DNA from: Negaprion brevirostris
Taxonomy: Eukaryota
NCBI GenBank assembly: GCA_030324005.1
Contig: JARDVH010000115.1
Location: 9,571,475 to 9,635,474 of the forward strand
Length of the DNA: 64,000 nucleotides
Direction of reading: 5' to 3'
In this document: positions 48,626 through 49,974 of the stretch, piece after piece
Position numbering within the stretch: the stretch's first letter is position 1
Layout of the letters: the number at the start of each line of letters is the position of its first letter
Translations under genes and position numbers: made by a program
Notes under the pieces: generated by a model
Seen by the model: the letters and a program-made list of their open reading frames with translations, nothing else
Told to the model about the DNA's origin: nothing
The model's database searches: none

Positions 48626-49423
48626 AATGAACCTTGGGATACCTATCTCCCAAGATTTTGTTTTAACTGAAAAGGGTGCAATGTGTGGGCATGCTCCTTC
48701 CGCCTGTAAAGGACAGGGTCCTGTGTGGTGAATAGATATAACTTCTGGTTTGTATAAATGAATCACACTGCAAGCCTGCCTTATGATGAATTGGTTTTCA
48801 GTGTAATTCATAGCACAATCCGAATTTTTTTGCAAGCATTGTACAAACGCAGATTCATAATTAATGTTAAAGATTCTTGAGTTTTGAAAGCATGGTTGGA
48901 TGCAGTCTGGGCTGTCTGCTGCAAACAGCCAAAGGCACATGTTGCTTGATTCAATCTGTTGGTCATTGGAATGTTTGGCCTACATACCTGGCATCATAAC
49001 TGGAACTGAAATCCATATACCACATTACTCAGTAAGATAGGCAGAATGTCTTCATGGCTTGAGGGCAGCATCCAGTCAGTGGATGAAACCACTTGTGTGA
49101 CTGCTGCATAGTAACAGCGTGAAAAAACTAGCTCCATCTGTTAGTTAAATGTTTGAGACACATGGCTCTTCCAAGGTAGACTGGGCACTTTTCAGGACCG
49201 AGTGTGGCAGCCTTGTGATATACAACGAGCAATGATCTGATCAGGATAATGGAATAATGGCCGCCCCAATCAAATGATTGTTCCCTTCTGCATTCTCCAT
49301 GGCAGCACCTCTATCAGAGTCCACATTCCTACCAGTCAGCACTTCTCACACAGCATAAATTGTTTCCTCTACTGTTGGTGTCCTTATGATCTGTGGCCCA
49401 GTGGTTAGGATTCAGTGCCCTCT

Positions 49424-49459
49424 TTGTTCTGATGAGTGCAAGATGAAAAGCTTAGACAG
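49424..49459 (+). ncRNA. Minimal type-I hammerhead ribozyme motif (family 3), sense to SPTLC2 intron 6
   Basis: UUGUU-CUGAUGA-GU-GCAAG-AU-GAA-AAGCUU-A-GACAG; related copies on the - strand at 47525-47558 and 31844-31877. Confidence 0.65.
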
Positions 49460-49974
49460 CATGTCTTTTTTTTTTCAGCAATACCCAAGTTCATCTTTGA
49501 TATGCAACTTTCAGGATGTGGAAATGATGTACATGGATCCTGGTTTTTTTATTNNNNNNNNNNNNNNNNNNNNNNNNNNNNNNNNNNNNNNNNNNNNNNN
49601 NNNNNNNNNNNNNNNNNNNNNNNNNNNNNNNNNNNNNNNNNNNNNNNNNNNNNATTGCTGAGCAGTTGCATTCCTACATGAGAGTCATACAGCAATAAGG
49701 AACCATTAAAGTTATAAATATGAACGGTTGAATTTTTTTGAGGTAATCTAAGATTGTCACGGTGCAAAGTCAGGCACGGGAATTCAAGAAAAAGTCCTGC
49801 CCTCAAAGGCAAATGCACTTAACATTGGAAGTGCATTAGAATAATGCAGCATTTGCTCGCTTCCTCCCCCCGCCCTTGGTCAATTAATACCTTGCAAAGT
49901 TTACCAAGGCATTTCAAGTTTCAGTAAAATTGTAACCTAATGGCAGGTTGTATATTTAAATACACAACCCTAGA

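Follow-up and report, generated by a model that had tools for sequence, protein, structure and literature searches.

A hammerhead motif in the probable 3' pseudo-LTR of a decayed Penelope-like element of Negaprion brevirostris and a predicted loop II pseudoknot in its lineage

The window analyzed here, a stretch of 64,000 nucleotides from the genome of Negaprion brevirostris, contains at 49424-49459 a short sequence resembling a hammerhead ribozyme, which raises the question what kind of element carries this motif and whether the ribozyme could be functional. The letters and parts of the motif are as described in the first-pass annotation (Table 1). Stem I is formed by 49424-28 and 49455-59, the core comprises C3 to A9 at 49429-35 and G12 to A15.1 at 49445-48, and stem II consists of 49436-37 paired with 49443-44, enclosing a loop of 5 nt. 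The palindrome AAGCUU covers 49448-53, and position 17 corresponds to 49454. Rfam hammerhead models gave no match in the window at E<=10. A 20-nt core pattern with up to 3 mismatches matched twice in the window compared to a mean of 0.00 in 100 shuffles, while the 25-mer core showed 473 exact matches in the 2.69-Gb genome and its reversed control none. Based on these shuffles and genome counts, a chance origin of the motif can be dismissed, and the counts likewise bear out the high copy number that had been claimed.

The assumption that no coding remnant is attached to the motif did not hold. It is adjoined on the minus strand, at 49248-48716, by a decayed frame encoding the linker and the GIY-YIG endonuclease of a Penelope-like element (PLE). 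A PLE protein profile built from 38 relatives matched the minus strand at 49248-48931 (iE 5.7e-12), 49235-48906 and 48868-48716, and tblastn with an intact relative gave an E of 2e-11 at 49248-49006. Six-frame translation of 48400-49300 also showed broken stretches of linker and endonuclease on the minus strand. A DNA profile of the 3' part of the family aligned on both strands, with its positions 4-226 at 48829-48605 (minus) and 291-482 at 49281-49497 (plus). This placement can be explained by an insertion in which the 3' end is joined to an inverted upstream piece. The 3' segment on the plus strand holds a decayed CCAAT/TATA-like region, the hammerhead, a T-rich stretch and the start of the tail; no target-site duplication could be discerned at the ends of the window copy. 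Altogether, we consider it highly probable (about 0.9) that this hammerhead belongs to the 3' pseudo-LTR of an abundant but decayed Penelope-like retrotransposon whose protein ends in a GIY-YIG endonuclease, and that the insertion in the window is 5'-truncated, has its 5' piece inverted and is likely inert.

Table 1. Positions of the hammerhead motif, its surrounding element and related copies in the 64,000-nucleotide window
Feature	Position	Strand	Details or basis
Inverted 5' piece of the same insertion	48605..49248	-	decayed RT-EN linker, GIY-YIG endonuclease, start of 3' UTR; stops and frameshifts
PLE 3' pseudo-LTR segment	49281..49497	+	nhmmer with profile of protein-selected copies, E 3.4e-27
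Degraded version of the predicted loop II partner strand	49383..49387	+	CUUAU here, CUUGC in the family; insert shifts the strand off the core
tRNA-Glu(CTC)-like fragment, ~30 nt, inserted 5' of stem I	49393..49422	+	degenerate pattern has 13 genome matches
Type I hammerhead motif	49424..49459	+	5-bp stem I (two G-U), 2-bp stem II (one G-U), 5-nt loop II, 6-nt palindrome replacing stem III; predicted cut 3' of 49454
Isolated 3' end belonging to the family, degenerate hammerhead at 47525-47558	47479..47730	-	sequence homology and DNA profile
Last endonuclease codons (32078-31982) and 3' end, broken hammerhead core at 31844-31877	31804..32078	-	translation and DNA profile
Endonuclease C-terminus (11972-11661) and 3' UTR with internal duplication, without hammerhead	11661..12094	-	translation, tblastn, DNA profile

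The window contains three further copies of the family. Those at 47525-47558 and 31844-31877 are homologous to the motif as had been proposed, but neither comprises an intact hammerhead: in the former, the palindrome and the larger part of stem I are gone, in the latter G10.1 and G12. The sequence at 11660-12100, formerly regarded as a body-only copy, encodes the C-terminus of the endonuclease. Endonuclease codons are thus present in two of the three copies, and a bare 3' end is seen only for the one at 47.5 kb. Other repeats were observed as well. Another short and abundant repeat, which has a hammerhead-like motif of a different kind with a long stem II, occurs at 47775-47860 (minus strand), 42180-42370, 44190-44350, 9930-10050 and 240-330, in many cases as fold-back pairs. 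The stretches 48147-48503 and 9429-9800 share a repeat, at 68% over 377 bases; a GIY-YIG-like peptide lies at 9442-9486, and the repeat is probably the remnant of a different PLE family. At 41470-41669 (plus strand) a degenerate, partly repeated U2 snRNA-like sequence reached 32 bits, the gathering score being 46.

In the whole genome, a query with the endonuclease C-terminus gave at least 6698 first-look candidates (150 scored) and a longer query at least 8457 (118 scored), the best 30 matches of the latter all containing stops. Extrapolated from these lower bounds, the copy number of the PLE family would lie in the tens of thousands. Locus L151 (G000:C11832) holds a PLE frame from another lineage, 498 aa without a stop and with a CxxC endonuclease; younger PLE families therefore exist in this genome. 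The link between hammerhead and open reading frame was determined for 29 loci picked by endonuclease similarity alone, with the query locus excluded. A family hammerhead followed on the same strand about 120-230 nt past the endonuclease match at 18 of these loci and after inserts at 2 more; an inverted hammerhead upstream was present at 12 and none at 4. The position of a pseudo-LTR with hammerhead after the open reading frame agrees with that in EN+ PLEs, and so does the single frame combining RT and GIY-YIG: linker and endonuclease are found in the window, a decayed RT-to-EN frame at four genomic loci (L156, L091, L092 and L101), and Pfam detected RT (PF00078) in full-length relatives and a GIY-YIG domain above its cut-off in the relative P0002. 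For an 87-aa genomic peptide, Pfam found nothing. Locus L156 covers residues 4-802 of an 841-aa relative and is flanked by two outward-facing hammerheads, which is the inverted-repeat layout drawn for PLEs in the available legend of Fig. 2 of PMC8557442. No relative was detected in viral contigs, either by protein or by RNA pattern.

A second set, selected by the hammerhead itself, comprised 90 of 300 genome hits, each scanned within 660 bases. An inverted piece lay upstream in 17 of these copies, so that inverted 5'-truncated copies forming inverted repeats, as in EN+ PLEs, were observed in both sets and for the window copy. This set also bears on the retrozyme idea, in which the repeat would be a non-coding, non-autonomous family of its own, multiplying through tandem or circular RNA units. 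Such a family could account for the 59 of 90 copies without an endonuclease part in the scanned range, and non-LTR retrozymes derived from PLE ends have been reported in vertebrates, one chondrichthyan included, in the accessible part of bioRxiv 10.64898/2026.07.22.740005. However, the remaining 31 copies and the focal copy do carry endonuclease sequence, and the check for tandem or dimeric copies suggested by the first-pass annotation turned out negative, with a second same-strand hammerhead within 660 bases in 0/90 copies. Moreover, the 5' ends are ragged and lie anywhere between profile positions 2 and 414, without a common start. Neither of the retrozyme traits, head-to-tail units each with a hammerhead and the lack of coding sequence, was thus observed, and the repeat is the 3' pseudo-LTR of a PLE, an outcome that the annotation had itself named as incompatible with its retrozyme-style element. 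The retrozyme reading is thereby largely refuted, and we regard it as very improbable. At one locus (L076), a same-strand hammerhead lies 1.6 kb upstream; among the short loci examined, no clean partial tandem and no clean direct-repeat copy with the open reading frame between two same-strand pseudo-LTRs was found.

Within the pseudo-LTR of the Penelope-like element, the copies allow the ancestral ribozyme to be reconstructed. In the 90 copies, the dinucleotide at positions 11.1/12 was TG in 54, CA in 15 and CG in 3, and that at 17/1.1 was TG in 40, CA in 28 and CG in 10, whereas 7/8 showed TG in 71 and CA in none. Since the spectra at 11.1/12 and 17/1.1 match the decay of CpG, the source elements likely comprised the canonical G10.1-C11.1 pair and a UUC triplet; G10.1-C11.1 is found in the related loci L159, L160 and L162. 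The cleavage triplet UUA, correctly noted for the window copy, would accordingly be no family feature: it is a rare derived state present in 3 of 90 copies. Stem I pair 5 covaries among subfamilies (C-G in 21, U-A in 25), with 49 Watson-Crick pairs compared to a shuffled mean of 28.5, a value reached in 0/10000 shuffles, while pairs 6 and 7 showed no covariation in the 90 copies. With the G-C as the putative ancestral pair, the family displays the conserved core, the G10.1-C11.1 pair and the palindromic stem III region of the PLE minimal hammerheads.

In those 25 of 44 protein-selected copies whose flanks still aligned, identity of the core to the majority was 93%; the matched background reached 83% and codon positions 1+2 of the endonuclease 89% (p about 0.03). 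This excess might be taken as a sign that the window copy, or many copies, have been retained as working host ribozymes, and a contig of a second organism does cover 48855-49458 with 19 differences. Nonetheless, the core is complete in only 3 of the 25 copies, and the excess is compatible with a core that was fixed throughout the source subfamilies, plus alignment anchoring. We read the conservation as constraint that would have acted in the source elements, not in the copies. The focal copy itself displays a G-U in place of the C-G beside the core in stem I, a further G-U at 10.1-11.1 and the derived A at position 17, with three wobble pairs in total, and a DNA-profile scan of the 64-kb window revealed no second same-strand hammerhead as its partner. 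Retention as host ribozymes is hardly credible on this evidence. The tRNA-Glu-like insert separates the strand at 49383-49387 from stem I; four of the five loci scanned for its pattern are tRNA-Glu genes and the fifth is the window site. Due to the three wobble pairs and the insert displacing the knot strand, the window copy is most likely inert, and since the second organism's contig spans the site, the insertion is probably old.

A further feature of the ancestral motif concerns its loop II. In the family, the 5 nt of this loop are perfectly complementary to a pentamer that ends 7-9 nt ahead of the core. For comparison, 80 loci of related PLEs from metagenome contigs were considered. The closest relatives (45-53% amino-acid identity) have a hammerhead 130-230 nt past the open reading frame with the same GU/AC stem II and AAGCUU. 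Loop and 5' strand read GCAAG/CUUGC in this genome, GUCGG/CCGAC in L159, GCGUC/GACGC in L160 and GUCAG/CUGAC in L162 and its near-copies, and L208 matches at 4 of 5 positions. Shuffling gave a chance of 0.002-0.004 per family for such a match, based on a distance window of 7-11 nt chosen post hoc. In an alignment of 11 related rows, with L159 and L208 out of register, two-sided changes are seen in every one of the 5 stem I pairs and in 4 of 5 knot pairs; its covariation score was reached by 0/500 shuffles, and slid controls scored far lower. A covarying pairing between loop II and the stem I side, combined with a stem II of 1-2 bp, was thus found in four families. Because of these compensatory changes, a pseudoknot of loop II with the strand 5' of stem I is predicted. 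The proposed check for covariation in stem I turned out positive both for pair 5 among the subfamilies and for all pairs of the alignment. The label of a minimal hammerhead overlooks the predicted pseudoknot.

Within this genome, compensatory knot changes were absent: the 5' strand was changed in 0/6 classifiable copies with a GTGAG loop, and the GCGAG-loop subfamily retains CUUGC, which gives a G-U pair, so that changes are one-sided only. None of the 14 genome_contigs loci had this hammerhead type with a matching 5' strand. More distant PLEs comprise ordinary motifs with a long stem II, and short- and long-stem-II PLEs are located on opposite sides of one tree branch (83/98; 23 rows). Rfam hammerhead models gave no match at E<=10 in L159, L160, L162, L241 and L131. 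In the L162 group, with about a dozen near-copies, the core starts with U3 yet keeps G8, a U-G replacing C3-G8.

The same pairing could also be read as an off-switch for a ribozyme located at the 5' terminus of nascent RNA instead of an activating contact. In all four families the knot could recruit A11.2 and thereby reach 6 bp, which would compete with stem II, and the minimum-energy fold of L241 is this very hairpin. Folding programs did not separate the activating from the inhibitory pairing: single-strand folding gave no hammerhead fold (motif z 0.57), and forced dimers were less stable than the best cofold, a calculation that leaves out the knot energy. In contrast, a stem I-II pseudoknot with a 1-2-bp stem II is a known activating design, and breaking the knot cut rates more than 100-fold in one tested case according to the accessible text of PMC3088659. 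Furthermore, a 2-bp stem II is unlikely to fold unsupported. The inhibitory pairing is therefore considered unlikely, and an activating pseudoknot is assumed in the following.

The position of the knot strand can be related to a promoter. By consensus matches, L159, L160, L162 and L164 have a TATA box 46-50 nt ahead of the core and L209 has none; in 28 of the 90 genomic copies, the distance is 40-49 nt, with CCAAT boxes farther up. The usual spacing from TATA box to transcription start is about 30 nt, which places the predicted start just 5' of the knot strand. In an active ancestor, RNA polymerase II would thus start in the pseudo-LTR just 5' of the ribozyme, presumably in the upstream pseudo-LTR of a partial tandem. 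A pseudoknot of 5-6 bp joining loop II to the initial nucleotides of the transcript, as suggested by the covariation, would prop the 2-bp stem II. By analogy with published PLE hammerheads, two ribozymes might then pair via the palindrome, and a cut after UUC at both ends would release a unit-length RNA, as proposed in the available text of PMC4209133, in which PLE hammerhead dimers cleaved weakly. We put forward as a tentative proposal, less probable than not, that one widespread PLE lineage uses an undescribed hybrid ribozyme, dimer-dependent like the PLE minimal hammerheads and pseudoknot-braced like the fast bacterial ones, whose knot strand would be formed by the first nucleotides from its own TATA promoter. 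If true, cleavage would be rapid and coupled to the site of transcription start, and the excision of unit-length RNA by these PLEs would thereby be explained.

Further features were observed downstream of the core. A tail motif, CAAGTTCTGTAC, is located at 49487-49497 (plus strand) of the window and at 55 nt past the core start in L162 and L164; L160 shows a variant, and 26 of the 90 genomic copies match it with at most 2 mismatches. It is possibly a signal for the RT of the element. Directly 3' of the hammerhead of L160, a hairpin resembling the histone 3' stem-loop occurs at 1319-1365 (plus strand; 27.7 bits, gathering score 34), with a weaker second copy at 1385-1420.

As a repeat family, the element is ordinary, a fossil Penelope-like element. 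Compared to the Penelope/Poseidon clade of EN+ PLEs, as far as the available text of Craig et al. 2021 (PMC8557442) describes it, the family likewise shows RT followed by a C-terminal GIY-YIG, a hammerhead near the 3' end and inverted 5'-truncated pieces. Among 60 relatives, the DKG motif was found in 43 and a linker Zn-finger in none, and both His motifs of the CCHH endonuclease were seen. Between GIY and YIG, 52 of the 60 relatives have the two cysteines in CxC spacing, a point of difference from that clade. By the motifs of that source the family fits Penelope/Poseidon, the assignment being one by motifs and the tree one without named elements. Naiad/Chlamys was rejected by the C-terminal position of the endonuclease, and Neptune, Nematis and Hydra were rejected by motifs.

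A type I hammerhead with palindromic stem III, present in high copy and linked to Penelope-like elements, remains from the original description, and hammerheads in PLE pseudo-LTRs have been known since 2014, fishes included (Cervera and de la Pena 2014, PMC4209133, available text). The metazoan PLE minimal hammerheads described there are also type I with a short stem I, a palindromic 15.2-16.2/loop III and G10.1-C11.1, and occur mostly as single truncated copies or as opposite-strand pairs 100-700 bp apart, placed after the RT-EN open reading frame. In the published forms, in contrast, helix II measures 6-8 bp and positions 9 and 10.1 are separated by an extra base, whereas the present lineage has a 2-bp stem II, lacks the extra base after A9, and its loop II is predicted to pair with the 5' strand, so that the 2014 consensus of a long helix II, an extra base and no tertiary contact does not describe it. 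The word pseudoknot is absent from the accessible text of PMC4209133. Compared to the animal non-LTR retrozymes (PMC7761336; bioRxiv 10.64898/2026.07.22.740005, both in their available parts), the type I hammerhead, the weak stem III and the link to PLE ends are alike, but those retrozymes are non-coding tandem repeats, while the window family is coding-linked and non-tandem. The layout of its insertions is the one described for PLEs in the accessible text of PMC8557442 and PMC4209133, and not that of the tandem retrozymes.

The predicted pseudoknot matters because PLE hammerheads cleave inefficiently in vitro, lack a proven role and, as far as the available part of a 2020 review (PMC7761336) goes, are described as having no tertiary loop-loop contacts. 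A lineage in which such a contact is defined and the promoter lies at a fixed distance would allow a direct test of whether these hammerheads are efficient dimer ribozymes when the 5' flank is present, and it provides a search pattern for copies missed by Rfam models. A pseudoknot between loop II and the nucleotides before stem I is reportedly common in hammerheads, as the abstract of Lunse et al. 2017 is said to state; that paper lay outside our literature search, in which no pseudoknot in PLE hammerheads was found, and it may already show a pseudoknotted PLE form. Stem I-II pseudoknots with a 1-2-bp stem II have been known since 2011 (Perreault et al. 2011, PMC3088659), and one pseudoknot (PK) form has been crystallized (PMC11300833). 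As described in the accessible text of both sources, these hammerheads share with the present lineage the 1-2-bp stem II and the base-paired contact between loop II and the stem I side, and occur in types I, II and III. They are mainly bacterial, phage or intronic and have their own stem III, and the partner in the crystallized form is a hairpin loop, whereas in this PLE lineage loop II is predicted to pair with a single 5' strand, and the palindrome serving as stem III needs a dimer. Altogether, hammerheads in PLE pseudo-LTRs are already known, and the feature added here would be a 2-bp stem II combined with a predicted loop II pseudoknot.
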